From Escherichia phage vB_EcoM_ECO1230-10: a stretch of DNA of 41,666 nt. The position numbers were made by a program, and so were the translations under genes. Under the pieces are notes generated by a model that was not told the DNA's origin, searched no databases, and was given only the letters and a program-made list of their open reading frames with translations. The stretch lies in the sequence record NC_027995.1, one strand, 5' to 3'. Positions within the stretch are counted from its first letter, which is position 1. Every line of letters starts with the position of its first letter. This document shows, in pieces, positions 10,400 to 28,430 of this stretch.

Positions 10400-10470
10400 T
10401 ATTCGGTTTCCTATTAACTGTGCACACAGTGAAAATTCGCAGTGTGATGGTCGCAGGAACCGTGCGTGGC

Positions 10471-10488
10471 TTCTTCTTGGGGTTTGTC
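10471..10488 (-). promoter_or_regulatory. late-junction motif copy 1 (GACAAACCCCAAGAAGAA), upstream of sheath
   Basis: exact 18-mer; 72 nt from sheath ATG; just downstream of Tfa terminator. Confidence 0.45.
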
Positions 10489-10490
10489 CG

Positions 10491-10514
10491 TAAAAAAGCC
10501 CGCGTGATGCGGGC
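10491..10514 (-). terminator. intrinsic terminator after tail-fibre assembly gene
   Basis: minus sense gcccgc-atcac-gcgggc followed by TTTTTTA. Confidence 0.6.
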
Positions 10515-10693
10515 AAAGGCGACAAATCAGTAACCGATGGCGAACCAGTCAACGGTTAGTGTTGTTGTTCCTGGTGCTGTCCCTTCATTCTGCACCCCGC
10601 CAAGAATGCTTGAAAATGTGGTTAGCGTACGCCCGCTGATGTTAGCATATTCAAGAACAATGTTTTTGTTAGTTATGCCTCTAAAGACTTCGC

Positions 10694-10999
10694 TCATACA
10701 TTGTTCGCCTCATTCGTTGCGCCAATCAGCGCGGCCACATCCGGGTTTGCGTTCAGGAACGAACGCAGTTTGTCTACCGGGTCAGTTTGCTTGTTGTCGT
10801 TGGCCACCTGTACGGTGACCAGTTGCCATTCCGCGCCGTTCCAGCGCGGCCATTGGCCATCGATGAAATCAGGTGGTGCCACCGTGACACAGCGCGCAGG
10901 AATCAGGAACACGCCAGGTTCCAGCGGCGATTCATCGGCATCAGTCTGGCCAACATACATGCCAGCCAGGTCATATTGATAAACTGGTTTAGTGTTCAT
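10694..10999 (-). CDS. tail fibre assembly chaperone (Tfa-like, short)
   Basis: APPDFIDGQWPRWNGAEWQLV resembles conserved N-terminal Tfa region; immediately downstream of fibre gene. Confidence 0.6.
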   Translation of the reverse strand: MNTKPVYQYDLAGMYVGQTDADESPLEPGVFLIPARCVTVAPPDFIDGQWPRWNGAEWQLVTVQVANDNKQTDPVDKLRSFLNANPDVAALIGATNEANNV

Positions 11000-11008
11000 A
11001 ATGCCGCC

Positions 11009-12364
11009 TTAAAATTTGATGCAAGCCAACATGGCAACGTTGCGCGGGCGCGCTTCGCTTCCGCCGCTTGATTTTGTCACCAGGTCTGCTTGCTGCGCGC
11101 CACCTGCGCCGGTATCTGCGCCAACCGCATAAACCCCGCCAGTGGCGTCAATTTGCGTTGCTCTCCACGCCTGCAAATTATGGGTATGTTCCTTGTTCTG
11201 GTCGCCCTGCCAGCTACCGAGAGCGCGTCCAGTGTCTATGTCTCTCGCGTCATCCCAGGCGCGAATAAACTCTCCTCGCAGGTCTGGAACGTTGAATGTA
11301 GTAGCACCGTCACCCTCCCCAAACGTTGTGCCGATGGCAGAAAACAGGTCTGCGTAAGCTGTTCGACTGACCGCTGCTCCGTTGGCTTTCAGCCATCCAG
11401 TTGGTGCACTGTTGCGAGCAAACATCGCCACCATTCCTGCTGGTGCCTGCTGGCGTGCCAGGTTGTAGGTTTCGGCCTTGCTGTACACATCCAGATTGTT
11501 GCGCGACGTTACTTTGTCTGCAACATCAGCCAGGTTTTTGCTGCGTTCCAGTGGTGCAGGCGCACTTCCTGCTGGCTCGTTGTTCACGCACTCTATTTTT
11601 GTTCCTTCCGGGTATGATTTGCCAAGAATGACTCGATTTGCCAACGTTTCATCTGGCTGCCAGTCATCAACGTCAGGTCCACGCGTAAGGCGAACACCTT
11701 CGATGTACACCGCAAGGCCGTATGTAATGGTTTTCGTCAGGTCAACGTTGGTCTGACCGGCTGCCAGTATTTGCTTTTCTGCTACCGTATCAACAACAAC
11801 GTTTGCCTGCGTCGGGTCAATCCAGTGCACATCGCCGTCAGAGTTTGAAACCTTAGCCAGCACCTGCCCGGTTGTGCCACCAGGGATAAGCGTTCCAGCA
11901 GTCACGTTGTTGCTGATCCACTGCTGAGTGACAACCACAACGTTTGGGTCAATCTGCAGCGCGATGGTGTTTGCGTTCGAAACCATGAAATCAAGACGCA
12001 CCACCGTGTCAGCGTATGCGCCTTCGGTGTCCTGTGGTTTATAGGTGGCAGGCAGGTTGCCAACCACGAACAGTGAACCGTCAGAATCAAACACGCCAAC
12101 TTCGCGCAGAGTAAAGCCGCCAACGCTTGCCGGAATAACCAATTCAGCTGTGAACCGCAGCGGGTCGTCAGGTGCCTGGTAAACGCGGTTAATTACCGCG
12201 CGGTATCTCTCGCGCACAAGTTGGATTTGATTTCCAGACGGGGTTACCGCGTTACCGCCACCGTCACCAACCGCCATGTGGGTAAGGTTTATTGCTTTGC
12301 CTGTAGATTCAGCCCTGGCAAGCTCTTGTAAACCGTAGTTCGTGTGAATGGTCATAAAAGACAT
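11009..12364 (-). CDS. tail fibre protein (P2 gpH-like N-terminus)
   Basis: MAVGDGGG...AELVIPASVGGF...YKP motifs as in P2 H; ATG at 12364 chosen over the track's TTG at 12400. Confidence 0.8.
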   Translation of the reverse strand: MSFMTIHTNYGLQELARAESTGKAINLTHMAVGDGGGNAVTPSGNQIQLVRERYRAVINRVYQAPDDPLRFTAELVIPASVGGFTLREVGVFDSDGSLFVVGNLPATYKPQDTEGAYADTVVRLDFMVSNANTIALQIDPNVVVVTQQWISNNVTAGTLIPGGTTGQVLAKVSNSDGDVHWIDPTQANVVVDTVAEKQILAAGQTNVDLTKTITYGLAVYIEGVRLTRGPDVDDWQPDETLANRVILGKSYPEGTKIECVNNEPAGSAPAPLERSKNLADVADKVTSRNNLDVYSKAETYNLARQQAPAGMVAMFARNSAPTGWLKANGAAVSRTAYADLFSAIGTTFGEGDGATTFNVPDLRGEFIRAWDDARDIDTGRALGSWQGDQNKEHTHNLQAWRATQIDATGGVYAVGADTGAGGAQQADLVTKSSGGSEARPRNVAMLACIKF

Positions 12365-12398
12365 ATCGTAATCTCTTGTCGGGGTAATAAATTTATAC

Positions 12399-12420
12399 AA
12401 CCCCGCGTTTGCGGGGTTTG
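12399..12420 (-). terminator. terminator-like hairpin between tailspike and fibre genes
   Basis: minus sense ccccgc-aaac-gcgggg followed by TTGTATAAATTTATT. Confidence 0.4.
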
Positions 12421-12423
12421 TAA

Positions 12424-15495: not shown

Positions 15496-16390
15496 CTGTT
15501 TCACCTGCTGCGTTCACGGCAATGCTGGTGCAGTAGCTCGCCTGGCCGTCTCCAATCACCAGCGATTCAGTCGGTGAAATCAGGTTCACATTTTGAACGC
15601 CTGGCTGATGCAACGCGTGATACAAGCCAGACAAAGTGACATCGTACCCGATGCGGCGCTGCGTTTCGGCGTATGCGGTCACCGCATCAATGGCGGATTG
15701 CAGAACAACCGTTGCGTCAGGCCCAGGGTACAGGGTTAGTTCTGCTTCAATGTTGTAAGGCACAATGATTGCCGACTGCACTTGCACCTGGTCAGTCATT
15801 GGGCGCACGGTTTCTGCGTTCAGCGTGGTGTTAACATTTTCAAGCAGACTTTCTGGTGCGGTTCCATCGCCAGTGCGTGATAAAACGTAAACCACCACAA
15901 CCCCTGGCGTTGGGCTGACAGGCTGCACGTCCTTCACGTCAGGGTCAGCGCCAAGCGCGTGGAACACGTAACTGCCTTCGGAACCTGCTGTGGTGTATGC
16001 TTCCGGTGATAACTGGATGCGCGCGCGGAAATCATCGTCAGATTCCATGACGGCGGCCACTGGCGGCACTGCGTCAGGGTCAGCCGGTGTGATGGTCTGC
16101 CGTTCCACGTTGACGTTTGCGCCAAGCTGGTCCAGGTCGGAACCGGTGGCGTAGGCCAGCATGATGGCTTTGGCGGCCTCATTGACGCGATGACGCATCA
16201 GCAGTTCACGATAGGCGCAAACCTCCAGAACCTTATAAGCCGGATCAGATTCCACCAGTGCGGTGAATGTGGGGTCACGCTCCTGTAAGTCGGCAATCAT
16301 GGCCGCCAGGATAGTTTCGAAGTCCAGCGATTCAACAACGTTTGGCGCTGGTAATTGAGATAAGTTTACAACTGTGAAGGCACCCGCCAT
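15488..16390 (-). CDS. baseplate assembly protein J
   Basis: NLSQLPAPNVVESLDFETILA N-terminus and overall gpJ-like sequence; TAAATG junction with W. Confidence 0.85.
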   Translation of the reverse strand: MAGAFTVVNLSQLPAPNVVESLDFETILAAMIADLQERDPTFTALVESDPAYKVLEVCAYRELLMRHRVNEAAKAIMLAYATGSDLDQLGANVNVERQTITPADPDAVPPVAAVMESDDDFRARIQLSPEAYTTAGSEGSYVFHALGADPDVKDVQPVSPTPGVVVVYVLSRTGDGTAPESLLENVNTTLNAETVRPMTDQVQVQSAIIVPYNIEAELTLYPGPDATVVLQSAIDAVTAYAETQRRIGYDVTLSGLYHALHQPGVQNVNLISPTESLVIGDGQASYCTSIAVNAAGETDV

Positions 16391-16729
16391 TTATGTCACC
16401 ACTATGCCATCAATCGTTATTTGTTTGCCGTCTGGCAGGTATTCGCCGGTAATGGAAAATTCCACGCGCCCTGGCACCGCTGCGGTGGCTGTCACCTGCT
16501 GCACGCTGATGCGTGGTTCCCAGGCTTCCAGCGCTTCCGCCGTCGCTGCGTACAGGTCCAGCAGCGTGCTGCGGTTCATTGGTGCATCAACCAGGTACGG
16601 CAACCGGCTGCCGTAGTCGCGGCGCATCACTCTCGTGCCAATTGGCGTCGTGAGTATGTCACGTATGGATTGGCGCAGATGGTCCAGGCCATCCAGCGGC
16701 GCGCCTGTTGCCGCGTTTGTTCCTTTCAT
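16391..16729 (-). CDS. baseplate protein W (gp25-like)
   Basis: LRQSIRDILTTPIGTRVMRRDYGS matches GPW/gp25 signature. Confidence 0.85.
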   Translation of the reverse strand: MKGTNAATGAPLDGLDHLRQSIRDILTTPIGTRVMRRDYGSRLPYLVDAPMNRSTLLDLYAATAEALEAWEPRISVQQVTATAAVPGRVEFSITGEYLPDGKQITIDGIVVT

Positions 16730-16762
16730 GCGGGCAATGATGCCCGCATGGCCAGTGTTTTA

Positions 16763-16779
16763 TCTTCTTGGGGTTTGTC
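16763..16779 (-). promoter_or_regulatory. late-junction motif copy 2 (17 of 18), between V and W
   Basis: starts 4 nt after V stop; 34 nt from W ATG; followed by hairpin catgcgggc/gcccgcatg that contains the W start codon. Confidence 0.4.
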
Positions 16780-16782
16780 AGG

Positions 16783-17436
16783 TCAGACAGGTGCGCCGGT
16801 GTTGCTTCCGCCAGACTGCACGCCGCTGTGGCTGTGGTCACTGCCAACGTTTTTGCCGTTGTGGGTCAGGCTTGGCCCCTCGATGGAAACCGCGCCTTTC
16901 ATGGTCGCGCTGCCGCCCTCCTGGCCCATCGTCAGGCTTTTGGCCACGGTCAGGTTTCCGGTGCAAAACGTGTCAGGCGTGTCCATGGTGACGCTGGTGG
17001 ATGCCGTCACCGTGGCCGTTTCGGTGTTAACGTTAGCCTGTTTGCAGTTGATGATGACGTTACCCGCGCCAGCTACGGTGATGGTCAGCGTGTTACTGGC
17101 GCTGTTGTAGTCAACAGTTGTGCCATCAGGGTAAACGGTTGTTTCCTGGTCGGCGCTGGCTGCTGGCGCTGCGTGGTCATCCTGGAAGATTGAAGGTCCG
17201 ATGACGGCCTGGCCTAAATCGCCATAAGGCGCAAACAACACCACCTGTTCACCGATGACAGGCGGTGACCAGTCGCGTCGCTTGCCAGCGCGGTTAGTTC
17301 CCCAGGGCAGCCAGTCAGTGGTGCAGCCAGCTACAGAAACCTTTGCCCGCGCGTTGGCCAGATCCAGTTGCTTAATGGTTCCGATGCGAACAACGTTGTT
17401 TAGCTGGCGGTTCAGTTCGCTAACTTCTGCGCTCAT
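16783..17436 (-). CDS. baseplate central spike protein V
   Basis: gpV-like N-terminal OB region; C-terminal Thr/Val-rich spike segment with DHSHSGVQSGG tip. Confidence 0.8.
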   Translation of the reverse strand: MSAEVSELNRQLNNVVRIGTIKQLDLANARAKVSVAGCTTDWLPWGTNRAGKRRDWSPPVIGEQVVLFAPYGDLGQAVIGPSIFQDDHAAPAASADQETTVYPDGTTVDYNSASNTLTITVAGAGNVIINCKQANVNTETATVTASTSVTMDTPDTFCTGNLTVAKSLTMGQEGGSATMKGAVSIEGPSLTHNGKNVGSDHSHSGVQSGGSNTGAPV

Positions 17437-18002
17437 GGTGCCACCTGTTCGTAATCTTCTTCGTTCCCGGTGCCGATTTCAGGACTCCAGGAGAAAAACA
17501 CCTGTGATGGTGTAATACCCTCATCGTTCCAGACACTTTCACCCAAGTGGATGACTTGCTGCCACTCCACGCGCCACACCTCGAATTTGTCCAGTTCCGG
17601 GGTGAAGTCGTCAGGGAAGCCGCCAACCACGTTGGCTGGCCCTGTGGGCAGTTTCTTGGCCGGGTTAGCCTGGTTGGTCCAGCGGCGCTTGCGCAGCCAG
17701 GCCATGAAGGCAGCGGCCAGCGTCCTGATGGCCAGGGCGGCACGCGGCGTGCGGATGCTGTTGATGATAAAATGCGCCTCAAACGTGGCCACTACAGCCA
17801 GTTGTTCGGTGCCGGGGTCAATGTCGTTGTCTGCCTCCATTTCGCTGATTGTCAGCAGGCAGGCAGGGATTGGCAGCGTTTTGCGCGCTTCCGGGTCATC
17901 CTGGTAAAACTCCACGGTGACCAGTTGCGGGAATGCGGCTTTGATGTCGGCCACAATGGCGCTGTGCAGCACTTCTAAATCAATGTGAGTATCGGCGTTC
18001 AT
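17433..18002 (-). CDS. putative tail completion protein (P2 R-like position)
   Basis: position between S-like gene and V; ATG at 18002 overlaps upstream TAA; the track's GTG start at 18011 is less likely. Confidence 0.4.
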   Translation of the reverse strand: MNADTHIDLEVLHSAIVADIKAAFPQLVTVEFYQDDPEARKTLPIPACLLTISEMEADNDIDPGTEQLAVVATFEAHFIINSIRTPRAALAIRTLAAAFMAWLRKRRWTNQANPAKKLPTGPANVVGGFPDDFTPELDKFEVWRVEWQQVIHLGESVWNDEGITPSQVFFSWSPEIGTGNEEDYEQVAP

Positions 18003-18556
18003 TATGCCCACCTATCAGATGTTTCAATGTATTTTACGCGTGCCCTTAAATCGCGTTCGAAATGCTTCCAGAATATTTCTTCAACCTGCGTGAATATTTC
18101 ATCTTCAATGAAGATTTCTGCTTTGTCCTTAATGGGCATCAACTGTTCAGTGATTGGCAAGCGTGCTTTGCCAGCGCGTTTAAACACTGTGCGTTTGCCT
18201 TTCACCGTGCTGCGGCCCACAAATGCGCCGTCAAACTTCTGATCACGGAACGTGGCCCCGTCACTGGTCTGCTTGGCTCGGCCCTTAAAGCTACTCACCG
18301 GCAAATCATTTAAGCCGTACCACAACACAACGCCCTGTTGGCGCGTGCGCAGCCTGATTGATTTCAGGCGCTTGCGCATAGCCGCCATCGTGCGCAGTTG
18401 CAGTTCATCTTTCAGGCCACGGCCAGACATTTTTCGCAGGGTGGCCGCCGTGCGGTTACATGCGCGGCTTAATGCGGCTTTGAACTGCTTTTCACTGGCT
18501 TCCAGTTCAGTAGCCACGCCGCGCAGTTGTTGCCAATCCAGGTCAAAATGCAGCAT
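18002..18556 (-). CDS. putative virion morphogenesis / tail completion protein (P2 S / Mu G-like)
   Basis: 184 aa basic protein at the head-tail junction of the late operon. Confidence 0.45.
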   Translation of the reverse strand: MLHFDLDWQQLRGVATELEASEKQFKAALSRACNRTAATLRKMSGRGLKDELQLRTMAAMRKRLKSIRLRTRQQGVVLWYGLNDLPVSSFKGRAKQTSDGATFRDQKFDGAFVGRSTVKGKRTVFKRAGKARLPITEQLMPIKDKAEIFIEDEIFTQVEEIFWKHFERDLRARVKYIETSDRWA

Positions 18557-18875
18557 CTTGGCGCGTCATCCTCACCACGGCGGTGCCTGTTCCATCCTGT
18601 TCAGGGGATGCCAGCACGTCGAACGTTTCACCGGCCACAATGATTGTGTCACCACGCAGAATGCCAGCCAGGTCAGATTCCTTTGCCGTGATGCGCGGGC
18701 TGCTGGTGTCCGCTTCATACTCGCCAATTTGCGCGTTGAAGTACGGGTCATCAAAAATGGCGTTAATTGTTCTGGTCCAACCTTTTTGCGAATGAATAAC
18801 GGCGGGAAATGCAAACCCGCCGTTGGTGTCAAGGTCAAAAAAGTCGTCCAGGTTTTCCCATGACGGCGCGGGCAT
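18543..18875 (-). CDS. putative head completion / head-tail connector protein
   Basis: 110 aa; position downstream of capsid genes; overlapping starts and stops with neighbours. Confidence 0.35.
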   Translation of the reverse strand: MPAPSWENLDDFFDLDTNGGFAFPAVIHSQKGWTRTINAIFDDPYFNAQIGEYEADTSSPRITAKESDLAGILRGDTIIVAGETFDVLASPEQDGTGTAVVRMTRQDAAF

Positions 18876-19231
18876 TACTGTGATTCCCGCTTATTGCCAA
18901 CCAGCACAACGCTGCGGATTGCCGAACCGGTATCTGCTGAAACATCTTTCACGCGAACGAATTTTTTGAAACGGTCAGCGTTAAACAGGATGGTGTCAGC
19001 CTTCGCTGCGGTGCCGATCTGCGCAAACGTGGTGTTTGGAACCGCAGTCCAGTTGTCTGTGCCATTGTCGCTGTGTTCAAGGCTTACAGTGGTGGTTCCA
19101 GCAGTGCCAATGCCATTCATGTGCAGAAGGCACAGGCCGTGATAATCACCAACGTTGACGGCTGAACCGTTGCCGTTAGCTGTAATGGTCGCTGGTGCTG
19201 CCAGCACAGTTACAGAAGTGCCGTGTTGCAT
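18875..19231 (-). CDS. hypothetical head-associated protein (118 aa)
   Basis: Thr/Ala/Gly-rich; position after capsid gene; TAATG coupling. Confidence 0.35.
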   Translation of the reverse strand: MQHGTSVTVLAAPATITANGNGSAVNVGDYHGLCLLHMNGIGTAGTTTVSLEHSDNGTDNWTAVPNTTFAQIGTAAKADTILFNADRFKKFVRVKDVSADTGSAIRSVVLVGNKRESQ

Positions 19232-19533
19232 TATTCGTCACCCTCTTTGGTTTCGCCTGCGGCTTCGATGGATTCAATCAACTGCGCTTTGGTCATCTTT
19301 TCAGCGCCTTCGATTTCCATATGTTCTGCAATAGCGATAAGCTGATCTTTGTTCATTTTCGTGATTTCAACATCTTCATCACGCGCCGGTTGTTCGTCGT
19401 GCATCACGGCTTTGCCACGTGACAACAGGTTTTTGGCCTCAAGCTCTGAAACCTCAACCAGTGAACCCGCTTTCATGACTTCACCGCTGATAGCAATGGC
19501 GGAAGTCAATTTCAGTACGTAAGTACCAGACAT
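19231..19533 (-). CDS. hypothetical protein with C-terminal Rho-N/HeH-like helix motif
   Basis: strong AGGAGA RBS; C-terminal MNKDQLIAIAEHMEIEGAEKMTKAQLIESIEA. Confidence 0.45.
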   Translation of the reverse strand: MSGTYVLKLTSAIAISGEVMKAGSLVEVSELEAKNLLSRGKAVMHDEQPARDEDVEITKMNKDQLIAIAEHMEIEGAEKMTKAQLIESIEAAGETKEGDE

Positions 19534-19561
19534 AAAACTGTCTCCTGTCGGAAAAGACTAT

Positions 19562-19577
19562 GGCCGCCGAAGCGGCC
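19562..19577 (-). terminator. hairpin (possible partial terminator) after capsid gene
   Basis: ggccgc-cgaa-gcggcc directly after the capsid stop; weak T-tract. Confidence 0.35.
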
Positions 19578-19584
19578 ATGATCG

Positions 19585-21633
19585 TTATTCTACTTTGCGG
19601 CCAAGCGCGAAGGATTCAACGCGGCGCACAGCAAAATCCACGTCCTGGAATACCACGATGCGCAGGCCACCGGATTTGCTCAGGCTGTACGGGTCAACCG
19701 TCATGTCCAGGCCGCCCCACATACCAACAACCAGGTCAGCGAAGTTGCCAAAGAACACGTCACCATCCTGCACCTGGTTGGTTACTTCGGCGCGGTAGCC
19801 GTTCAGGGTGTTGCCCGGTTCCCAAATCACACCAGCATCAGCAACGGAAGAACCGCTGGCAAACTTAGGCGTGGTTTTCGCTGCGCCACGGCCACGCGCG
19901 TTCAGCACATACGCCATGTTGTTAACGTCAGCGTTGTCAGCCGCAATTTCGGTTTCCATCTGCACCAGTTCCGCATAAGTCGGATTGTCTGCTGCGAAGT
20001 CTACCGCGTTAATGCCGGTGTAGTTCGCCAGGCCCAGCGGCTGGTTGCTGGTGCCGGTGCCGTAGTAACCAGCGTAATCAATCGCCTGCGCGATAGCTGC
20101 CACCAGATCACCACGCACGATGGCTTCCGCATCCGGGGTGGATTGCATCAGCAGGCGGCGGGTAATGTCGGTGTAAGCCGCAACGGTTTTAGGTGACAAG
20201 CCAAGCTGGCCGATGGTCGGCGTGGTTTCGGTTGCGTCATCACCTTCACCAATCCAGTAGGCAGTAGCGCCGCCAGTCTGTTTCGGAATTTCAACGTTGC
20301 CAACCAGGCCGCCCATAGTGCGCGCCAGGCGCATGATGGTGGTACGCGGGCGCAGCAGGTCGATGAACGAACTGGCCATAAAGTCAGTACCCACCAGGTT
20401 GGAACCGGTTTGAGCGCCTGTCGGGGTGTTCGGTGCGCCGCCAGCGTTGAATGCACGCAGAACATCGTCAGGGATCAGAATGCCTTTTGCACTGCGGCCA
20501 TACTGCTGTTGCGCTGCGTGGCTGCATTCGATTTCAAACGCTGCGGCACGTTGTGCGGCTGCATCGTTCGGGTTAGCCAGCGCGCGAACCACGTTGAAAA
20601 TGCTATAGCGGCGGATGTCTTTGTCAGACATACCAATAACGCTTGACGGCATTTCTGACAGCGGTTTGCCGCCTGAACGGGTGTCATCAGCCGGTTGTGC
20701 CGGGTCTTTCGTCTTGTTAAGGTGGTCCAGCAAGGAACGCTGGAAATCTTCGGCGGTGGTGCCTTCGCCAATGGCTTTCAAAGCCAGGTCACGTGCGTTG
20801 TACTTCTCACCCATTTCGGTGATTGAGCGAACGCGCGCCTTTTCGGCTTCACGGCCACGCTGTTCAGCGCTGCGCACATCATCGCCAGCACGTTCCAGCA
20901 TTTCCAGAACCTGCGTGATTTTGCCTTTCTCGTCTACCATCGCGCGCACCAGATTACCGGCAGCGTCGCGCAGAGTTTTTTCTAACATTCGTGAATCCTC
21001 AAATGATTTTTTTGGTGCTGGAACCTCTACGGTGCCCGCAGTATCGGATTTGCTGCCGCGTTGTTCTTCTTGGGGTTTGTCAAACGCACGCCCAATGCCA
21101 ACGCTGGTGTCAGCGGGAACGCTCACAATTGAAATTTCGAACGGTTCCCATTCAGTGATGCGGTAGACATCCTGCCACTCGTCACGCGTTTCCTGTAGCT
21201 TGGCCGCTAACACGCGGTAGCCAACGGAAACATGCTTGCGAATGCCGTCAACGATGTCCTGGAAAATCTCGTCAGCGCGCGCACTTCTGCCAAAGCGCAC
21301 CACAGCCCGCCCCCGGCGGTCAGCGTCAATGCTGACGGATTCAACAACGCCCACCTGGTCAGTCCAATCGTGGTCAACCAGCAGCGCCCCACCGTCACGC
21401 AGACGGTCTAGGCGCACGCTTTCCGGCGAATGGTCCAGAATTTCGATACCGTACCAGCGTTCAACCTCGATTTCAGAGGAAAAAGCCAGTTCTACGGTGC
21501 GTTTTTCGGTGTCAAACTTGCGCACTTCCATAGTGCGCACTAGCCCACCTTTGTTGAAGTCAGGCAGCGTTTTGCTGTCTGATTTGCGGGTAAATTCGGC
21601 CCCAATGATGCTATTCAGCAGGTTTTTCTGCAT
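19585..21633 (-). CDS. prohead protease - scaffold(delta) - HK97-fold major capsid protein fusion ORF
   Basis: N-terminal about 190 aa protease-like (LLVDHDW), coiled-coil linker, C-terminal HK97-like capsid body; single 682-codon frame. Confidence 0.8.
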   Translation of the reverse strand: MQKNLLNSIIGAEFTRKSDSKTLPDFNKGGLVRTMEVRKFDTEKRTVELAFSSEIEVERWYGIEILDHSPESVRLDRLRDGGALLVDHDWTDQVGVVESVSIDADRRGRAVVRFGRSARADEIFQDIVDGIRKHVSVGYRVLAAKLQETRDEWQDVYRITEWEPFEISIVSVPADTSVGIGRAFDKPQEEQRGSKSDTAGTVEVPAPKKSFEDSRMLEKTLRDAAGNLVRAMVDEKGKITQVLEMLERAGDDVRSAEQRGREAEKARVRSITEMGEKYNARDLALKAIGEGTTAEDFQRSLLDHLNKTKDPAQPADDTRSGGKPLSEMPSSVIGMSDKDIRRYSIFNVVRALANPNDAAAQRAAAFEIECSHAAQQQYGRSAKGILIPDDVLRAFNAGGAPNTPTGAQTGSNLVGTDFMASSFIDLLRPRTTIMRLARTMGGLVGNVEIPKQTGGATAYWIGEGDDATETTPTIGQLGLSPKTVAAYTDITRRLLMQSTPDAEAIVRGDLVAAIAQAIDYAGYYGTGTSNQPLGLANYTGINAVDFAADNPTYAELVQMETEIAADNADVNNMAYVLNARGRGAAKTTPKFASGSSVADAGVIWEPGNTLNGYRAEVTNQVQDGDVFFGNFADLVVGMWGGLDMTVDPYSLSKSGGLRIVVFQDVDFAVRRVESFALGRKVE
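21064..21081 (-). promoter_or_regulatory. late-junction motif copy 3, inside protease-capsid ORF linker
   Basis: exact 18-mer encoding DKPQEE; 76 nt upstream of internal GAGGA-N7-ATG at 20988. Confidence 0.45.
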
Positions 21634-23167
21634 TTTGCTGCCCCATTAACAGTTGTTTGTCCATGCCCATGCTTTGCATGACCAGTTTTTCCGCCATTTC
21701 GCGGCTGATACCGTGCTGCGTGTACGCCTCAATCATGCGCGCCACGTCGCTGGCGGTTTCCTTCCAAACGGTGTCAGGGTCGCTGCCACCTTCACGGATG
21801 ATGCGGCCAGGTGATTGCAGCATGTTGTTTTTGGACCGTTCAGCAGCTGCCACGTCAGATGACGGGTCAATCCAGGCCCAACGGCGTGGCTGCCATTCAA
21901 TGTTGCTGTAGCGGTCGATGCGTTCCGGTTTCAGGCTTCGTCCTTTAACGGTGATGCGGCCAGCAAGCAGGGCACGCGGCAACCATGCTTCAAAAACTGG
22001 TTGATGCAGGTTTTCAATCAACCATTCCTGCAATTCTTTCCAGTTTTCTCGGCTGTCTAGCGTTCCCTGGCGGATAGAGCTGAAATTGACGCCTTCCAGG
22101 TCGCTGGCAAGGTCATTATATGGAACACCCATACCCGATGCCATGCCGCGCAGCATTTGTTTGGTGAACACGGCAAATTCGCCGTTTGGGTATTGTGGCG
22201 ACCAGTCTTTGACGCGTGCGCCCTGTGGCAGAATCTGGAATTCACCCGGTTCACTGTCAATGATCAGTTCATCATCATCTTCAAACTCAGGACCAGCGGA
22301 ATTTTCATCCCATTCGATGAATCCCATTTTGTTGGCACCGGCGCGCGCGTTGACCAGCGCGGCTTCTTCCATGCCACCCAGGTGGCGCATACGAAACAGG
22401 CTGGTGGCCATCCACGGAAGGCCGCGTTTCTGCCCCACCATGTCATCCAGGAAGCCGTGAAGGATTTCATCAGCGGGAATTCGCACGAAATCACGCCCGG
22501 ACCAACGGTAGTTATCATTGGATTCATCAACCGTGCTGAAATAGTACGCAACAGGCCGCCCGTAGCGATTAAACTCGATGCCCTGGCGGATGAAATTTCC
22601 GTTATTCAGACGATCTTCAACCATGTCAACAGGGCAGCGTTGCGGGTCCAGCAGTTGCAGCGCGAAGCCCCACGGCCCTGCATCGGCACCGAACACCAGG
22701 CGCACGAAGAATTCACCATCTTTAGCCGTGCTGTTGACGCAGGCAGCCTGGATGGCGCGCCAGGATAACTTCCCTGTCACGTCGCAGTTTGACTTGTGCC
22801 CCCACTTATCGAAGGCCGTTTCAATGGCTTCGTTGGCCAGGGTGTCCAGTTTCCCGGTGTTGTCAGTGCTTTTGGCCTGCAACAGAACGCCTTTTGGACC
22901 AACAATATTGTTGCGGCACAGGCGCAGGAACTTTTTGGCATAATCATTGTTGGCGGCCTGCTCGCGGGAACGCGCCACCAGGATGCGTTGATTTTTGTTT
23001 ATTACCTCGTCAGCCGTCAGCGGCTGTGTACCCCACGCGGTTCCAAAACGGTCAATACTGGCACCGGTAAACATACGGGACGCCAGGCGGTTAAGCGATA
23101 AACGCCGCGTGCGCGGCTGTTGTGCCTGTTCTGCAGGCTTATTTCTGGTAAATGGCCACAGTTTCAT
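21611..23167 (-). CDS. portal protein (lambda gpB family)
   Basis: 518 aa; position between terminase and protease; lambda-B-like central region. Confidence 0.85.
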   Translation of the reverse strand: MKLWPFTRNKPAEQAQQPRTRRLSLNRLASRMFTGASIDRFGTAWGTQPLTADEVINKNQRILVARSREQAANNDYAKKFLRLCRNNIVGPKGVLLQAKSTDNTGKLDTLANEAIETAFDKWGHKSNCDVTGKLSWRAIQAACVNSTAKDGEFFVRLVFGADAGPWGFALQLLDPQRCPVDMVEDRLNNGNFIRQGIEFNRYGRPVAYYFSTVDESNDNYRWSGRDFVRIPADEILHGFLDDMVGQKRGLPWMATSLFRMRHLGGMEEAALVNARAGANKMGFIEWDENSAGPEFEDDDELIIDSEPGEFQILPQGARVKDWSPQYPNGEFAVFTKQMLRGMASGMGVPYNDLASDLEGVNFSSIRQGTLDSRENWKELQEWLIENLHQPVFEAWLPRALLAGRITVKGRSLKPERIDRYSNIEWQPRRWAWIDPSSDVAAAERSKNNMLQSPGRIIREGGSDPDTVWKETASDVARMIEAYTQHGISREMAEKLVMQSMGMDKQLLMGQQNAEKPAE

Positions 23168-23706
23168 CAGCGAAGGCTCACCCGAACTTTACGCCCGAAT
23201 GGGTTTTTGCCGCACTGCGCCTGTTTTTCGCGTGCTACTTCCAGGCGGTACAAGTCGCGCAGTTTCAACAAATCCGCAATCGGGGTGCGATATAACTCGC
23301 GGTTATTGATGCGGTAGCGTTCCTGGTCCATCGTTGCGCGTCGTTCAATGACCGCTTCAATGGCTTCCAGTGTGCGTTGCGCGTGAGTTTTCCCGTTAAA
23401 TCCATCACTGGCGCTGGCCAGGTCTGGCAGGATGGTGATCTGGCCGTTTCCGGCCTCCATAACGTCATCGCCTTTGGTTGCGCGCAGCGAATACCAGTAA
23501 TCGCCTGCTGGCCACGTTGCAGTGACGCCAGCGGCAGCGCGGATGACGTGATCGTTACCATCAGCGACGGCGTTGATGTTAATTGACTGCGGGCCGCGTA
23601 GCAGTAGCTGAACGGCCCATTCAGTTGCAGGATAGCCGGGAAGCGTCAGACGCGTCTCAAATGTCAATCCAGCAGTAATTTTCTGCGGTACTTGGCAGTT
23701 TTTCAC
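23167..23706 (-). CDS. head-tail joining protein W-like with N-terminal extension
   Basis: GTG start with GGTGA SD; C-terminal ERYRINNRELYRTPIADLLKLRDLYRLEV resembles lambda gpW; lies between terminase and portal. Confidence 0.45.
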   Translation of the reverse strand: MKNCQVPQKITAGLTFETRLTLPGYPATEWAVQLLLRGPQSININAVADGNDHVIRAAAGVTATWPAGDYWYSLRATKGDDVMEAGNGQITILPDLASASDGFNGKTHAQRTLEAIEAVIERRATMDQERYRINNRELYRTPIADLLKLRDLYRLEVAREKQAQCGKNPFGRKVRVSLR

Positions 23707-23712
23707 TTTTTA

Positions 23713-25761
23713 TCACCAGCGGCTAACCCATCCACCGCCACGGCGTTTTGCTGCCCTGGCGGAACGTTTAATGGTCTTAGTCTCTGTGACTTGCTGTTTT
23801 TCTTCTTCTTGGGGTTTGTCATTTGCCGGTTGCGGTGTTTCTACCGGTTTCATGACTGGTTTGACGCTCGGCAGCCGCTTGCGGCGTTCCGGTGGCGCGT
23901 TGTCGTTTGCTACCCCAAACTTTTCAGCCAGGCGGCGGAATGACGGCTGCATGATTTTCAGCGCGGCCAGCGCATAGTTGCGGCAGTCCAGTGCTTCGTT
24001 GCGCGCCCGGTCGGGTTTCTTCCATTCTCGGATTGGCTGGCCCTTCACGTAACGCATGGTCAGCTTTTCAGCGGTGATTTGCTTGAACCATTCTTCATCG
24101 CGGTCAGCAGGGAAGTGGCAATAACCCGGCCCCGGTGCCGTCTTGTTTAAACGCCTTGCGGTTATCAGCTTGGCTTCATCGGTTCCAACCAGGAACAAAT
24201 CCACTTTGCGGGTATCCTTCCCGGATTGCTTGCGCTGCGGCTTCTCCACGATAGGGCGGCCCCATCCACCAACGCCTTTGATGGCAAACAGGCGGCGGCC
24301 TGTGCGGCCTCTTGCGTAGTCGTATGCGGCCTGCGTGTAACCGCTGGTGCCCCCGGTATCGAGGCAGGCGGCCATGATCGGCATGATGGCCCCGGTTTCG
24401 TGCTGGTAGGTTTCCGCCAGCAGGTCATCCAGCGCATCCCAGGGGTCTGGCGTCAGCGGGTCGCCCCACAGGACGTGGTAACCCAATGACCAGGATTCTT
24501 CACCCACGCCCCAGGCCACAACCTCACATTCCAGGCGGTCAACCTGCATGTCTATGCCTGCGGTGATATACAGACCACCAGCAGGCACCTGCGCGGCGTA
24601 TTCCTCGCGGCGCGCCATCAGTGAATCCGGGTCAACCTTGTCGCCTTCTTCTTCCCATGTGCGCGCCAGGCTGACGTTGGTGAAGGTTTGCAGGTCGTCC
24701 GTTTTCAGCTTGTCCAGGTAGTCACGCACGATGGCCGGTACTTTACGGAATGTGCTGTATAGTTCGTTCAGGTGGTAGCTGGCGTGACCTTCAAACGGCC
24801 TGGATGCCTTCCATCCTGCGCCCTTTTCTTCGGCCTGGCGGATAGCCGCTATCCGTTCGCCGTCATTCCACTGCGCGCCGCATGATGGGCAATACAGGTG
24901 CGCTGTTTCCGGCTTCTGTTCGTCGATGGCCGCCAGCGTTTCCGCGTCAGTTTCGCGCTGGCCATCCCATTTGACGTTTTCCCATTCAAGCGTAACGTGA
25001 TCGTCACAGTGCGGGCAGCAAACATAGAAGTGTCGCTGGTCGCCCATTTCATACGCTTTTTCGATGTACGATTCCCCCTTAAGGGTAGGGGTGCTGATTT
25101 CCAGCAAAAACCGTTGGTCACCGAAGGTGGCAGAACGCTGCCACAGCAGGCCAACCGGGTGACCTTCGCTGGTTCGTTCATATCCGTCTACCTCGTCACA
25201 TACGATCAGCGGCGCTGAACGACCGCGCATGGTCTTTGGCGAACCGGACCATGCGAACATCAGGAACCCGCCAGGGTATGATTTCATTTTCTGGTTGTTC
25301 ACCCCGTCGCGGCCACGCGGTTTGGCAATGGCGTTGTTTACCGGCGCGCATTCTTCCGCCAGCGGGTTGAATTTTGTTTCCAGCCAGGTGCGCAAGTCAT
25401 CCTGGCTTGGCTGCATCATCATCTGGCTGCGCGGTTCAGCGGCTACGCTGTACGCCTGCACGCACAGTGCCAGCATGGTTTTGCCCACCTGTGCGCCCCA
25501 CATCAGCGTTACGCGGTAGCAATCCGGGTCAACCAGCATGTCCATTGGTTCGCGCTGGTATGGCGCGTTATCCAGGCGCAGCGGCCCTGGCACGGCGTTG
25601 CCAGACGGAATGCGGATGTTTGCCTGCGCCCACTCTGACGGCTTCATGTCTGGCGGCGGCAACAATTGTTGTTGTGCGCGCCTGATGGCCTGGTCGATGC
25701 CTTCAATGTTGGCAAACGGGTTATTCTTCGCTGTCACCGTCGCCCCCTTCGTCATAGCCAT
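23713..25761 (-). CDS. terminase large subunit (lambda gpA family)
   Basis: 682 aa; N-terminal PSEWAQANIRIP...MWGAQVGKT region aligns with lambda A; nuclease and ATPase motifs present. Confidence 0.9.
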   Translation of the reverse strand: MAMTKGATVTAKNNPFANIEGIDQAIRRAQQQLLPPPDMKPSEWAQANIRIPSGNAVPGPLRLDNAPYQREPMDMLVDPDCYRVTLMWGAQVGKTMLALCVQAYSVAAEPRSQMMMQPSQDDLRTWLETKFNPLAEECAPVNNAIAKPRGRDGVNNQKMKSYPGGFLMFAWSGSPKTMRGRSAPLIVCDEVDGYERTSEGHPVGLLWQRSATFGDQRFLLEISTPTLKGESYIEKAYEMGDQRHFYVCCPHCDDHVTLEWENVKWDGQRETDAETLAAIDEQKPETAHLYCPSCGAQWNDGERIAAIRQAEEKGAGWKASRPFEGHASYHLNELYSTFRKVPAIVRDYLDKLKTDDLQTFTNVSLARTWEEEGDKVDPDSLMARREEYAAQVPAGGLYITAGIDMQVDRLECEVVAWGVGEESWSLGYHVLWGDPLTPDPWDALDDLLAETYQHETGAIMPIMAACLDTGGTSGYTQAAYDYARGRTGRRLFAIKGVGGWGRPIVEKPQRKQSGKDTRKVDLFLVGTDEAKLITARRLNKTAPGPGYCHFPADRDEEWFKQITAEKLTMRYVKGQPIREWKKPDRARNEALDCRNYALAALKIMQPSFRRLAEKFGVANDNAPPERRKRLPSVKPVMKPVETPQPANDKPQEEEKQQVTETKTIKRSARAAKRRGGGWVSRW
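23803..23820 (-). promoter_or_regulatory. late-junction motif copy 4, in terminase C-terminal codons
   Basis: exact 18-mer encoding DKPQEE; 97 nt upstream of the next gene's GTG start. Confidence 0.45.
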
Positions 25762-26245
25762 CCAGCAGGGAAGCTGTCACCAGTGATTTCAGCACTTCGT
25801 CAATCTCTGACATCATCACCGATTTGAACCGGCGTTCATCGGTTTCACCGATAAGCATTGAAACGGTGCGCTGTGGCAGGTTGCGCATCCCGGCGCGCAC
25901 TTCCGCGAAGGCGCGGGCAACGGCGCGTTCAACCTGGTCGAGTGGTGCCACTTCGCCTTTGGCTTTGGCCAGTTCCAGTTCTGCTTTTTCGGTTTCGGCT
26001 GCCAGCTTGCGGCGCTTCAATTCCGTTTCATCTGCCAGCATGTCACCGGTGGCCGCTTTCACATCGCGTTCACGCAACCAGGCCGCCACCTGCGCGGTGT
26101 CGTACTCCCATTCTTTACCGCGCCCGCCAAGTGTTACATAGGGCGCGCCATCTTTTCGCCACTGGTCAACTGTTGGCGGTGCTACCCCGAAAACTTCCGC
26201 CAGGCCGCTGCGGTTAACTGTTCGGCCTTTTATTGCTTTTGCCAA
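25721..26245 (-). CDS. terminase small subunit (lambda Nu1-like)
   Basis: TTG start with AAGGCG SD; VNRSGLAEVFGVAPPTVDQWRKDGAPYV...GGRGKEWEYD matches Nu1 wing-helix. Confidence 0.7.
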   Translation of the reverse strand: MAKAIKGRTVNRSGLAEVFGVAPPTVDQWRKDGAPYVTLGGRGKEWEYDTAQVAAWLRERDVKAATGDMLADETELKRRKLAAETEKAELELAKAKGEVAPLDQVERAVARAFAEVRAGMRNLPQRTVSMLIGETDERRFKSVMMSEIDEVLKSLVTASLLDGYDEGGDGDSEE

Positions 26246-26409
26246 TTGATGTCGCCTTATCTAATGCTAAAAACGATTTTGATTATCCACGCACAACGCG
26301 AATTATGCGGGACCAATGCCCCCGCAGGCTGTACCCCCCTCGGAAGTACCTTGACTTTTTCGATTCCGGTCTATGTCAAGCATTTTTTGCGTAGTGCGTG
26401 AAAATATTT
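26246..26409. other. candidate cos / packaging-initiation region
   Basis: 164-bp noncoding gap immediately upstream of Nu1-like gene (lambda cos position); contains G/C-rich block cccccgcaggctgtacccccc and inverted cttgac/gtcaag. Confidence 0.35.
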
Positions 26410-26907
26410 TCATTGTCGTGATGTCGCTCTCACCGCGTCGTAAGCCCGTTCGCACGCCAGCCCAGCGGCTCTTGCCCTGTCAGCCTCTGCTGCATAGATG
26501 CCCGCTGCTGTGTCAATTTCTCTGAACAACTCGGCAAGCAGGCTGCTGGTGCTGGCCCTTGTCTTGCTGCTGATGGTAGCGCCGGGATTGCCGCTATCTG
26601 CCTGTAGTCTGGTGATGGCGTCTGCGATACCGTCTTGCAAGCGCTTAGACTCAGCAGCAGCAATGGCAGCATTACGCTGCGCTGTAGCAATGTCCTGCTG
26701 TGCTTGTTCCTGGATTGCATCAATAGCCCCCTGGCGCTCTAACTCGATGCGCCTTTGTTGTTCGGTGAATGCCTGCCTGCTCTGTGCGTCAGCAGTATCG
26801 CGGGCAGACCATTTGGCCTGCCATGTGTGGTTGCTGTACTGATAGCCAGACAGGAAAACCCCGGCCACAACGGCCAGGGCAATGACTGTTTCAGTTGCGG
26901 GCTTCAT
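26410..26907 (-). CDS. i-spanin (Rz / LysB-like)
   Basis: start MKPATETVIALAVVAGVF (N-terminal TM) overlapping lysozyme stop (ATGA); coiled-coil periplasmic region. Confidence 0.65.
   Translation of the reverse strand: MKPATETVIALAVVAGVFLSGYQYSNHTWQAKWSARDTADAQSRQAFTEQQRRIELERQGAIDAIQEQAQQDIATAQRNAAIAAAESKRLQDGIADAITRLQADSGNPGATISSKTRASTSSLLAELFREIDTAAGIYAAEADRARAAGLACERAYDAVRATSRQ
26430..26672 (-). CDS. o-spanin (Rz1 / LysC-like) embedded in alternate frame
   Basis: MLPLLLLSLSAC lipobox signal then Pro-rich segment; wholly nested inside i-spanin gene. Confidence 0.55.
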   Translation of the reverse strand: MLPLLLLSLSACKTVSQTPSPDYRQIAAIPALPSAARQGPAPAACLPSCSEKLTQQRASMQQRLTGQEPLGWRANGLTTR

Positions 26908-27392
26908 GCCGCCACCGTGCCACCGGCGTTGCGATACGCTGCCAGCAGGTTTGCAATCTTCTGTTCGTGCTGCCCATAACCAGCACCAGGCAGTGACGCC
27001 CAAATGTTGCGAACCTGGCGCACGGCCTGTTCAAACTGGCCTGCCTGAATAAGTGGCAAGGCTCGGCGTTCACGGATTTGCTGAATTGCAATCAAATCCT
27101 GTGATAACGGGCTGAAATCTTTCAGTCCCAATTGCTTTTTGTAGGCGTCGTAATAGCGGCTCAAAAGCTGATAACGTCCAGCCGCCGTGGATTTGATGCC
27201 CAGCTTAGGTAGTTCTACCAGCTTGCGCGGATGGTCTGCATAACCGGTGAACAGGCCACCGCCAACCAGCACGTCATAGCCGTGGTCATTGGTGCGCTGT
27301 CTGCCGTTGTCCGTTCCTTCGCTATAGGCGATCATATCCAGGAACGCGCAAACGTTCTTACCACCTGCCTGTTGTGGAGTAATAACAGCCAT
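26904..27392 (-). CDS. endolysin, P2 gpK-like lysozyme
   Basis: AFLDMIAYSEGTDNG...GYDVLVGGG...STAAGRYQLL...IWASLPGAGYGQ closely follows P2 K. Confidence 0.85.
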   Translation of the reverse strand: MAVITPQQAGGKNVCAFLDMIAYSEGTDNGRQRTNDHGYDVLVGGGLFTGYADHPRKLVELPKLGIKSTAAGRYQLLSRYYDAYKKQLGLKDFSPLSQDLIAIQQIRERRALPLIQAGQFEQAVRQVRNIWASLPGAGYGQHEQKIANLLAAYRNAGGTVAA

Positions 27393-27394
27393 TA

Positions 27395-27670
27395 TTAATA
27401 CCTCTCATGTGCGGTTTTGAAACGCTTAAGCCATGATAAAAAAACGTGACGAGCGCCAACCAGTGCAATGCTGACGTTCATGGTGACAAATGGCCGTTGT
27501 GAGTAATGGCCAGTGATGGTGTGAATGATGATTGCCAGTGCTGATATTGCCACCAGCGAAAAAAACAGTTTTCCAACAATGCCGTCTTTTACTCCGCTGT
27601 ACACCACGCACCATGATGCCCAGATGAAGATGAAACAGACGGCGATAAAGTTAATGGCAAAAGTTGTCAT
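27395..27670 (-). CDS. holin/antiholin-like membrane protein (91 aa)
   Basis: two to three predicted TM helices; between holin and lysozyme; ATGA coupling. Confidence 0.5.
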   Translation of the reverse strand: MTTFAINFIAVCFIFIWASWCVVYSGVKDGIVGKLFFSLVAISALAIIIHTITGHYSQRPFVTMNVSIALVGARHVFLSWLKRFKTAHERY

Positions 27671-27990
27671 GCGTTACCACCGAATTTGCTTTTGATAGCC
27701 TCAATTAAGGTCGCAATGTCGGCGTTCTGAATCTTCCTGATAACAGCCACCACCATCGAACCGCCAAATGATCCCAGCAGGAAACCAATAGCCGAAGTGT
27801 ATTGCTGTGGGATGCTGTAAAACCATGACGTCCAACCAGTCAGGAAGTAAGAGCAAGCCAGCCCGCTACAAACAAACCACAGACGGCCTTTGATGCTCTT
27901 ATCATCGTGAAAAGGAACAGCAATCAACGCACCCATTAAACCAGCGATTGCCCATCCAATGTTATCCAGAAACTTCTCAAAAATATTCAT
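27667..27990 (-). CDS. holin (3-TM class)
   Basis: 107 aa, three hydrophobic helices and charged C-terminus; first gene of lysis cassette. Confidence 0.65.
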   Translation of the reverse strand: MNIFEKFLDNIGWAIAGLMGALIAVPFHDDKSIKGRLWFVCSGLACSYFLTGWTSWFYSIPQQYTSAIGFLLGSFGGSMVVAVIRKIQNADIATLIEAIKSKFGGNA

Positions 27991-27995
27991 GCCAG

Positions 27996-28430
27996 TTATT
28001 GCCCCGTAGTCATTAGTAGTCGGTGCTGATGGTTGTCATTTGCAGGTGATGTGTCTTTATGGGGTTTGTCAGTGCAATGGCGCTTAACGGTGCGTTCTGA
28101 AACGTCCAACAGTTCCGCGATGGTTTTCGCGTCCACTCCTTCGCTGTGCATCCGCTTAATGCTGCGGTGAATGAAATGGCGGTAAATGTATTCACAATTA
28201 GCCGGGTGAAGCATTTCACCACCGAAGTGCTGCACCATCTTGCTGGCATCGTGCCACCCCAGGATTTTCACCAGTGGGTCATTGGGTCGGATCCGCTTTG
28301 GTACATACAGGATGACTTTGTGGTATTGCTGCGATGGCACCCACAGTTTTGGTAGTTGTCCGATAAGAAAAAGCGCACGTTCACGGCCAATAACGTCAGC
28401 TATTTCCTGCACAGTGCGCGGTAATTCCAT
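27996..28430 (-). CDS. Mor/C-family transcriptional activator (candidate late activator)
   Basis: FGGEML...(about 20 aa)...VDAKTIAELLDVSERTVKRH matches Mor/C layout; located immediately upstream of lysis genes as Mu C is. Confidence 0.55.
   Translation of the reverse strand: MELPRTVQEIADVIGRERALFLIGQLPKLWVPSQQYHKVILYVPKRIRPNDPLVKILGWHDASKMVQHFGGEMLHPANCEYIYRHFIHRSIKRMHSEGVDAKTIAELLDVSERTVKRHCTDKPHKDTSPANDNHQHRLLMTTGQ
28054..28070 (-). promoter_or_regulatory. late-junction motif copy 5 (variant GACAAACCCCATAAAGA), upstream of holin
   Basis: 13 of 17 match, same strand and frame (TDKPHKD) inside activator gene 3' end; 64 nt from holin ATG. Confidence 0.35.

Follow-up and report, generated by a model that had tools for sequence, protein, structure and literature searches.

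A repeated 19-nucleotide element at five late-gene junctions of Escherichia phage vB_EcoM_ECO1230-10 as the proposed recognition site of a Mor-like late activator

The late region of Escherichia phage vB_EcoM_ECO1230-10 (NC_027995.1; the window, 41,666 nucleotides, is the whole stretch of DNA analysed here) contains five copies of a short element at the junctions between its gene modules. We propose that each copy is the activator-binding half of a late promoter and that the five promoters depend on a phage activator in the manner of Mu C, and on the sequence evidence we consider this the probable explanation. The candidate late activator is a protein of 144 residues encoded on the minus strand at 27996..28430. 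The proposal draws on the architecture of the sites, their conservation, their change in step with the activator and their co-variation with it, all of which could be read directly from the DNA of this phage and its relatives. Each promoter would consist of an asymmetric element of 19 base pairs (bp), a spacer of about 18 bp and a weak sigma-70-type -10 sequence, nAnA[A/C]T, with no -35 sequence. Host sigma-70 RNA polymerase alone would be unable to use the five promoters, and the 144-residue protein would bind the 19-mer and recruit or activate the polymerase as Mu C or Mor does, with its C-terminal helix-turn-helix (HTH) reading a lineage-specific 5' tetramer, TGAC in the window phage.

Searching the window for GACAAACCCCAAGAAGAA with up to three mismatches allowed gave five matches in total, all on the minus strand, which is the coding strand of the entire late region. 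Three were exact (10471-10488, 21064-21081 and 23803-23820) and two were near-copies, one with a single mismatch, its final base being T (16762-16779), and one with three mismatches (28053-28070). Since only 0.01 same-strand copies were expected and none of 100 shuffles yielded five matches, the repetition noticed in the original prediction is beyond chance. That prediction had given the motif a length of 18 nucleotides, which has to be revised, as the conserved unit is 19 nucleotides long with an extra 5' base that is T in four copies and G in the copy before the sheath gene; the window form of the 19-mer is TGACAAACCCCAAGAAGAA. Its position shortly upstream of late-gene starts stands, but the distance of 34-97 nucleotides does not, the interval from the motif 3' end to the next start codon being 32-96 nucleotides when remeasured. 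The spacing between copies is roughly regular, at 2.7-6.3 kb. When the flanks of the five copies (200 nucleotides each) were aligned, no similarity was found outside the motif, and therefore the copies represent independent sites and not duplicated segments. An unguided repeat search was too noisy and missed the motif, recovering two other repeat families instead.

The relatives of this phage were identified with an 8-kb segment of the late region (window 16000-24000), which is approximately 92% identical to Escherichia phages vB_EcoM-ep3, ECOO78 and HeidiAbel (Bas97), 90% identical to Salmonella phage PT1 and 78% identical to Enterobacter phage Arya and Klebsiella phage KA2-1. These are all small myoviruses belonging to, or near, the genus Jilinvirus. 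Jilinvirus-type relatives combine a lambda-like head with a P2-like tail, and in such phages a gene annotated "late transcriptional activator" lies directly upstream of the lysis genes. Bas97 is a member of the BASEL phage collection, and the Jilinvirus/Iiscvirinae group with its sister genera has been called poorly characterised (PMC11990801). No description of these promoters or of the Jilinvirus-Iiscvirinae transcription programme was found in the searchable literature, which was queried for the motif, for the genus and subfamily, and for the relatives by name.

In the close relatives the motif is unchanged and occurs at all five of the places seen in the window. Arya and KA2-1 likewise have a repeated motif there, of a different sequence in each (GACACCCCGCACGAAGAA in Arya, GACAAGCCGCACGAAGAA in KA2-1). 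When viral contigs were searched with the activator protein, 62 loci of 26-95% identity were obtained, and most of those with enough downstream sequence had, at the 3' end of the activator gene, a lineage-specific 17-19-mer that recurred on the same strand approximately 4 kb and 7 kb downstream. All lineage versions aligned to the 19-mer without gaps, roughly as GGAAAnCCCACnAGAGGAA. Within a genome the 19-mer differs between sites by no more than one or two bases, usually at position 1 or 19, and this pattern of a genome having its own 19-mer was also seen in phages phiRSP, PPpW-3, Mica, FoX1 and Alexa. A weight matrix made from the sites found 200 sense against 35 antisense matches at a score of at least 12, and 140 sense against a single antisense match at a score of at least 16.

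The places occupied are shared between the phages: the 3' end of the activator gene, before the holin and lysis genes; the 3' end of TerL, before the head-tail joining gene; the interior of the head gene, between its protease and scaffold-capsid parts; the gap before gpW; and the region before the sheath gene. All five sites were present in the complete genomes of phiRSP (Ralstonia), PPpW-3 (Pseudomonas) and Mica (Burkholderia), and the scan located three or four in KA2-1, FoX1 (Xanthomonas) and Alexa (Acinetobacter), the gpW site of FoX1 being spotted later by eye. Persinger (Pseudomonas), Serratia phage MQ-4 and Achromobacter phage Mano, for which the gpW region was inspected, each had the gpW site. 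The suggestion that related phages be searched for the motif at equivalent junctions was thus borne out, as lineage versions were found at orthologous positions and in strict orientation. We conclude from these comparisons that, over at least eight host genera, the motif and the Mor-like activator have evolved jointly, with every site following the change. Since the position of the sites is fixed while their sequence is altered alike at all copies within a genome, the motif behaves as a cis element would that follows a recognition factor encoded by the phage.

The architecture downstream of the motif was derived from 70 non-redundant sites from relatives. The sole conserved positions downstream of the 19-mer were +19 to +24, reading G-A-n-A-A/C-T, with A at +20 in 67 sites, A at +22 in 54 and T at +24 in 64, and with almost no information at the flanking positions. 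By its sequence this block is a -10 hexamer of the sigma-70 type, corresponding to positions 2, 4, 5 and 6 of TATAAT, held at a fixed distance of 18 bp. The combination of A at +20 and T at +24 occurred at the exact spacing in 128 of the 140 high-scoring sense matches, against a background of 4.2%. There was no -35 hexamer, in that the 70 sites had no conserved TTGACA-like sequence 17 bp upstream of the -10. If the hexamer is placed at -12 to -7, the 19-mer would extend from approximately -49 to -31 with its centre near -40. The sites therefore have the recognisable sigma-70 -10 without a -35 hexamer that is typical of Mor/C-type promoters such as Pm, Plys, PI, PP and Pmom of Mu, together with an element in the 16-19-bp range that, in predicted start numbering, lies just upstream of or overlaps the -35 position. 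All sites have a single orientation relative to the -10, and the 5' and 3' ends of the motif do not co-vary. Canonical sigma-70 promoter matches were rarer than expected in the late region (7 vs 14.9 +/- 3.8), and canonical promoter prediction called none of the five motif sites. The element of the enterobacterial lineage has (T)TGACA, a -35-like sequence, at its 5' end (window 21082-21077 and equivalents). The 5' TGACA was rejected as a -35 hexamer, since it is 32 bp from the -10 and most lineages have GGAA at that place.

Some of the copies lie within genes, and here the DNA element has left a trace in protein sequence. In the window the three embedded copies share a frame, as had been predicted, with GAC forming a codon in the activator, TerL and head genes according to the open reading frame coordinates. 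In each of the eight genomes checked the frame begins at position 2 of the motif, and most of these genomes have three embedded copies (two in KA2-1, FoX1 and Alexa). Consequently the activator, TerL and head protein, which are otherwise unrelated, have a hexapeptide in common that changes jointly between phages, the versions in the eight genomes being DKPQEE, DTPHEE, DKPHEE, EIPPME, ANPQEE, EIPREE, EIPDME and EKAQDE. Since a promoter would lie inside each gene, it appears that three unrelated proteins are forced to one hexapeptide per phage. The C-terminal tail conserved among the activators (…NPQEE…ANDN…) is likewise the translation of the 19-mer and a GACAAT -10, and AlphaFold predicts the C-terminal tail of the activator to be disordered.

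The 144-residue protein matches PHROG 836, "late transcriptional activator" (E=7e-30). It has an N-terminal domain (residues 1-45), a Mor-like core (residues ~50-120) with an FGGEMLHP linker, and a C-terminal HTH with the recognition helix SERTVKRHC (residues 111-119), followed by a tail that is encoded by the first of the five proposed promoters. Among 47 orthologues, 23 matched Pfam Mor (PF08765; gathering score 24.9 bits) at E<=0.1. Ten orthologues were scanned individually, with matches that covered profile positions ~13-100, equivalent to residues ~46-134, and only one of the ten (L040, 32.6 bits) exceeded the gathering score. Aligned as a family with hhalign, the activators matched Mu Mor at E=5.5e-4 and a probability of 30%, with FGGEiLQP placed on the LGGGQVYIP beta-linker of Mor and the HTH following; for Mu C the probability was 1%. 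The first ~45 residues are predicted to form two helices and a beta hairpin and are nearly invariant across the family; this domain had no counterpart in Mor and no structural match. Searches of PDB sequences with the protein and with the family profile returned only generic HTH matches of LuxR/resolvase type and did not retrieve Mor.

Co-variation between activator and motif was studied in 33 non-redundant pairs. Motif positions 1-4 associated best with residues 113, 117, 112 and 116, all of which are in the recognition helix. Residue 121, which is encoded by the embedded motif copy, ranked among these helix residues; residues 121-125 are the translation of that copy and so serve as a positive control of the method. 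The pairings of helix and tetramer were S[DE]R[HQT]VRN with GGAA, SRETVNA with GCAG or ACAG, TEQxVRF with GAAG, SERTVKR with TGAC and S[TK]Yx[VI]RE with GGGG. Furthermore, motif positions 10-13 associated with residues 29-31 and 37-38 of the N-terminal beta hairpin, and positions 14-19 with linker residue 73. The protein-DNA contacts that we infer from these associations would place the HTH on the 5' end of the element.

Several observations weigh against activator-dependent promoters of the Mu C type. In Pfam the window activator gave no Mor match even at E<=1 and nothing beyond generic HTH hits below threshold, and in structure its likeness to Mor/C is that of a generic HTH. The Mor/C-family label of the original prediction is therefore upheld as a remote relation, through the weak matches of the orthologues and the alignment to Mu Mor, but not as membership, given the absence of a match for the window protein and the single orthologue above threshold. 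The sequences suggest a remote Mor/C-like core with an added N-terminal domain, and the protein is not a demonstrated member of the family. The -10 hexamers in the window are weak, matching TATAAT at three or four of six positions, and neither the consensus GGAAAnCCCACnAGAGGAA nor the window form shows dyad symmetry, unlike the Mor and C sites. The associations between activator and motif are confounded by shared ancestry and are suggestive only. Lastly, two lineages (L045-L062; activators at about 10001-10375 of each locus) lack the C-terminal HTH, having an AT-hook-like GNKGGRPKKN in its place, yet keep the promoters, both the embedded one and the downstream copies, with 5' tetramers that vary among their own sites. 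Since these lineages retain the promoters, the C-terminal HTH cannot be the sole reader of the element. The pattern fits, weakly and from two lineages, an HTH that reads the 5' end and other parts of the protein that read the conserved core.

Under the activator-dependent proposal the late region would be split into five units, all transcribed from the minus strand. P1 has its upstream element, TGACAAACCCCATAAAGAC, at 28053..28071 in the 3' end of the activator gene (codons DKPHKD) and a -10-like hexamer AACCAT at 28029..28034, 18 nucleotides past the 19-mer. With a predicted start at ~28022 and the holin ATG at 27990, it would serve the lysis and terminase unit, made up of holin, endolysin, spanin, terS and terL. 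The orthologue of P1 is embedded in the activator gene in every lineage examined. P2 lies in the 3' end of TerL (DKPQEE), with TGACAAACCCCAAGAAGAA at 23803..23821, GAGACT at 23779..23784 and a predicted start at ~23772, upstream of the head-tail joining gene (GTG 23706) and then the portal gene; the second unit would comprise head-tail joining, portal and head protease. Scaffold-capsid, neck and gpV would form the third unit, gpW, baseplate and fibres the fourth, and sheath, tube, tape measure and the rest of the tail the fifth.

P3 is located inside the head gene (19585-21633, minus strand), which encodes a single fusion of 682 residues made up of a Peptidase_S78 protease (residues 84-176), a scaffold-like linker and an HK97-type capsid (residues 410-678), with P3 between the protease and capsid domains. 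The element (21064..21082) occupies codons 185-190 (DKPQEE) and is followed by GATACT at 21040..21045, with a predicted start at ~21033. A Shine-Dalgarno sequence GAGGA (21000-20996) and an in-frame internal ATG (20988) come next, together at 20986..21000, so that P3 and this ATG would give a scaffold-capsid product of 467 residues without the protease domain. An internal in-frame ATG opening a reading frame of 448-479 residues follows the P3 equivalent in nine of nine genomes. Just past the stop codon of the head gene there is a bidirectional hairpin at 19579-19560.

P4 occupies the gap between gpV and gpW, the product of the latter gene matching Pfam GPW_gp25. Its element TGACAAACCCCAAGAAGAT (16762..16780) is followed by the -10 CATCAT (16742-16737) after a spacer of 19 bp, unlike the 18 bp elsewhere. 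The predicted +1 (~16729-16731) is on or adjoining the gpW ATG (16729). In 14 genomes the gpW ATG lies 6-7 nucleotides after the -10, and no Shine-Dalgarno sequence is present at the gpW start. We therefore predict from the sequence that the gpW mRNA is leaderless, with the A of the ATG or a neighbouring base as +1. The exact spacing between the -10 and the gpW ATG provides independent support for the sites being promoters. It also bears on annotation, as the deposited gpW starts of PPpW-3, Persinger and Mano use an upstream ATG or GTG that overlaps the promoter -10 or spacer (L069, 9744; L074, minus strand, 37475; L076, 2102). These starts are probably mis-annotated, the homologous start being the ATG 6-7 nucleotides past the -10.

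In most lineages the -10 of P4 is bracketed by an inverted repeat whose 3' arm includes the gpW ATG. In the window this repeat has a 10-bp stem, CATGCGGGCA-tcat-TGCCCGCATG (16727..16750), which encloses the -10 and as RNA would fold with -20 kcal/mol. The arms are compensatory between lineages (ATGCGGGCA/TGCCCGCAT in the window, CATGCCGCC/GGCGGCATG in phiRSP, CATGCGGGCC/GGCCCGCATG in PPpW-3), and repeats of this type were located in L004 (~27970-27994) and L069 (~9725-9755), and in L075 and L076 as well. The repeat is absent or weak in Arya, KA2-1 and Persinger. Plausibly, the AUG of read-through RNA would be masked by the hairpin, which would leave the P4 transcript as the only source of gpW.

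P5 follows the tail-fibre operon, which is closed by an intrinsic terminator (GCCCGCATCACGCGGGC with TTTTTT, 10498..10514) 8 nucleotides before the element. The element GGACAAACCCCAAGAAGAA (10471..10489) is followed by GACCAT (10447..10452), a predicted start at ~10440 and the sheath ATG at 10399. In Arya, KA2-1, PPpW-3, Mica and Alexa, too, there is a hairpin with a T-run before the sheath site. A position directly downstream of a terminator fits a promoter.

The original prediction had offered two roles for the motif, an activator-dependent late promoter element or a boundary sequence that promotes modular exchange. The sequences strongly favour the former, through the -10 at fixed spacing, the absence of a -35, the strict orientation, the five orthologous positions kept despite deep divergence and the change together with the activator. 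The same promoters might work in a different way, with the activator acting as a surrogate for, or appropriator of, sigma-70 region 4 at the -35 position in the style of T4 MotA/AsiA. In such a variant the task of the invariant N-terminal domain would be to dock on the polymerase or to read the conserved 3' half AGAGGAA (-37 to -31), and the HTH would add lineage specificity. This would account for an element that overlaps the -35 position where no -35 hexamer exists, for the 27 N-terminal residues that are nearly invariant while the HTH varies, and for the HTH-less lineages, which retain the conserved 3' part while the 5' tetramers vary among their own sites. Sub-threshold hits to Pfam Sigma70_r4 and r4_2 were also obtained with 17-25 of the 47 orthologues, but such similarities are generic to HTH domains and fall below curated thresholds, and the best profile link is to Mor. 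We regard this mechanism as rather unlikely in its own right, and keep it as a live variant of the preferred explanation.

Two further explanations would remove the motif from promoter function altogether. Every copy is on the transcribed strand, the 3' half contains GAGG in most lineages and the purine-rich AAGAGGAA of relatives resembles a Shine-Dalgarno sequence, all of which could point to a motif acting in RNA, whether in processing, in antitermination or loading, or as a signal for translation. We consider this very improbable, since an RNA role gives no explanation for the A/T pattern of the -10 at a fixed distance, the start codons are 32-96 nucleotides away and hence too far for a Shine-Dalgarno sequence, and the window version AAGAAGAA does not have GAGG. 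In addition, there was no Rfam match, the five sites when folded had no shared structure, the motif being unpaired or differently paired at each, and the location directly after a terminator fits a promoter. A DNA site with a function outside transcription, such as a T5-like strand-specific nick, an orientation signal for packaging or replication, or the proposed module-exchange boundary, appears to us extremely improbable. The orientation on one strand and the spacing of 2.7-6.3 kb do resemble nick sites, and one breakpoint of the variable fibre module (~10525) is 36 nucleotides from the sheath copy. There is no copy near the other breakpoint (~15299), however, and a lineage-specific sequence would hinder rather than promote recombination between lineages, so that the boundary role is not upheld. 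No candidate nicking enzyme co-varies with the motif, and the coupled -10, the exact spacing to the gpW ATG and the terminator context would be left unexplained.

Returning to promoters that depend on the activator, we tentatively suggest a more specific model, which is possible but which we would doubt as a whole. The activator would be a bipartite reader of an asymmetric site, in which the invariant N-terminal module (beta hairpin and linker) recognises the core and 3' half and holds the polymerase at the -35 contact, while a swappable HTH sets the 5' address (TGAC, GGAA, GCAG, GAAG, GGCA, GGGG and others). Activator and promoter would then form insulated pairs. The model would also include gpW being made only from the leaderless transcript, the compensatorily evolving hairpin hiding its AUG, which has no Shine-Dalgarno sequence, in read-through RNA. 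If this reading is true, the related phages hold a natural library of orthogonal late-gene switches.

Other repeats were observed in the window. The sequence GGGACTATC occurs seven times in both orientations, with at most one mismatch, within 28501-28768, in an AT-rich gap of 430 bp upstream of the activator gene, where the cluster sits between terminator-like hairpins at 28854-28837 and 28758-28739. An eighth copy (38130-38138) lies in the divergent early control region. The genome-wide total of 8 copies exceeds the 3.0 expected and was not attained in any of 100 shuffles. The box is also repeated upstream of the activator in L008. The array is a candidate operator array or set of iterons timing activator production. 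A 13-bp palindrome, AACAATNATTGTT, is present seven times against 0.15 expected (3079, 3872, 5301, 8423, 12537, 25661 and 40470), and Arya and KA2-1 have 6-10 copies. Several of the copies are in intergenic gaps of the tail module and one is just upstream of a ParB-like gene (2128-3003, minus strand); the palindrome may be a binding site for ParB or a regulator. Relatives also encode a small DksA/TraR-like zinc-finger protein (Bas97_0034, Mica gp66 and Alexa_054), which in two records, on the strength of an HHpred match to chain N of 6PST, is labelled an alpha subunit of RNA polymerase. This protein could modulate the host polymerase during infection.

The proposal offers a complete and testable late regulon, comprising five promoters with predicted start sites and one candidate activator. 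Since promoter and activator change in step over more than 15 specificities, they constitute a natural data set for the evolution of activator-DNA specificity, and the co-changing pairs are a possible source of orthogonal expression parts. The embedded promoters, by imposing a hexapeptide, would be a case of regulatory DNA dictating protein sequence. In addition, gpW start codons that are likely to be mis-annotated can be corrected in several deposited genomes.

It is known that the Mu late promoters have a -10 but no -35 and require the 19 bp from -52 to -34, where C binds to an imperfect dyad (PMC2582627). The Mor site is a dyad of 16 bp with its centre at -43.5 (PMC4390567), and cryo-electron microscopy has shown tetramers in contact with the alpha C-terminal domain, sigma region 4 and the beta flap (bioRxiv 10.1101/2025.05.02.651988). 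The window phage resembles Mu in having several dispersed late promoters with a recognisable -10 and no -35, a small phage activator with a C-terminal HTH on which they would depend, and a 19-bp element, at -52 to -34 in Plys and at approximately -49 to -31 by prediction here. The positional analogy drawn in the original prediction also holds, as the activator gene is immediately before the lysis genes in both phages (PMC2582627, PMC4390567). The proteins further share a remote profile similarity that includes the GG-x4-P beta-linker. Unlike in Mu, the site is asymmetric with no dyad and would be about 3 bp closer to the -10. The activator has an extra invariant N-terminal domain of ~45 residues and is below the Pfam Mor threshold. 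Three of the proposed promoters lie within genes, including the gene of the activator itself, and there is, as far as the sequence indicates, one activator tier compared with the Mor-then-C cascade.

In P2, 186 and P4, the late promoters PP, PO, PV and PF are activated by the zinc-finger proteins Ogr, B and Delta. Activators of the Ogr family are zinc-finger proteins of ~72 residues, and their site is a TGT-N12-ACA dyad centred near -55. The window phage shares with P2 the tail gene order, the separate late promoters before the baseplate block and before the sheath gene (FI in P2), and promoters without a -35 at which a phage activator would act with the host polymerase. The Ogr zinc-finger proteins are unrelated to the HTH activator, the motif contains no TGT-N12-ACA dyad, and the baseplate promoter is before V in P2 but before W here. 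The MotA box of T4 is 9 bp long and centred at -30, and its use needs the co-activator AsiA. The likeness to the T4 middle promoters, which work by sigma appropriation through MotA/AsiA (see also PMC6070864), lies in a phage-specified box that takes the place of the -35 while the sigma-70 -10 is kept, but MotA is unrelated to the window activator in sequence and fold. The Ogr-type system of P2 and the MotA-type system of T4 would thus be functional analogues of the late promoters proposed here, with unrelated proteins and sites.

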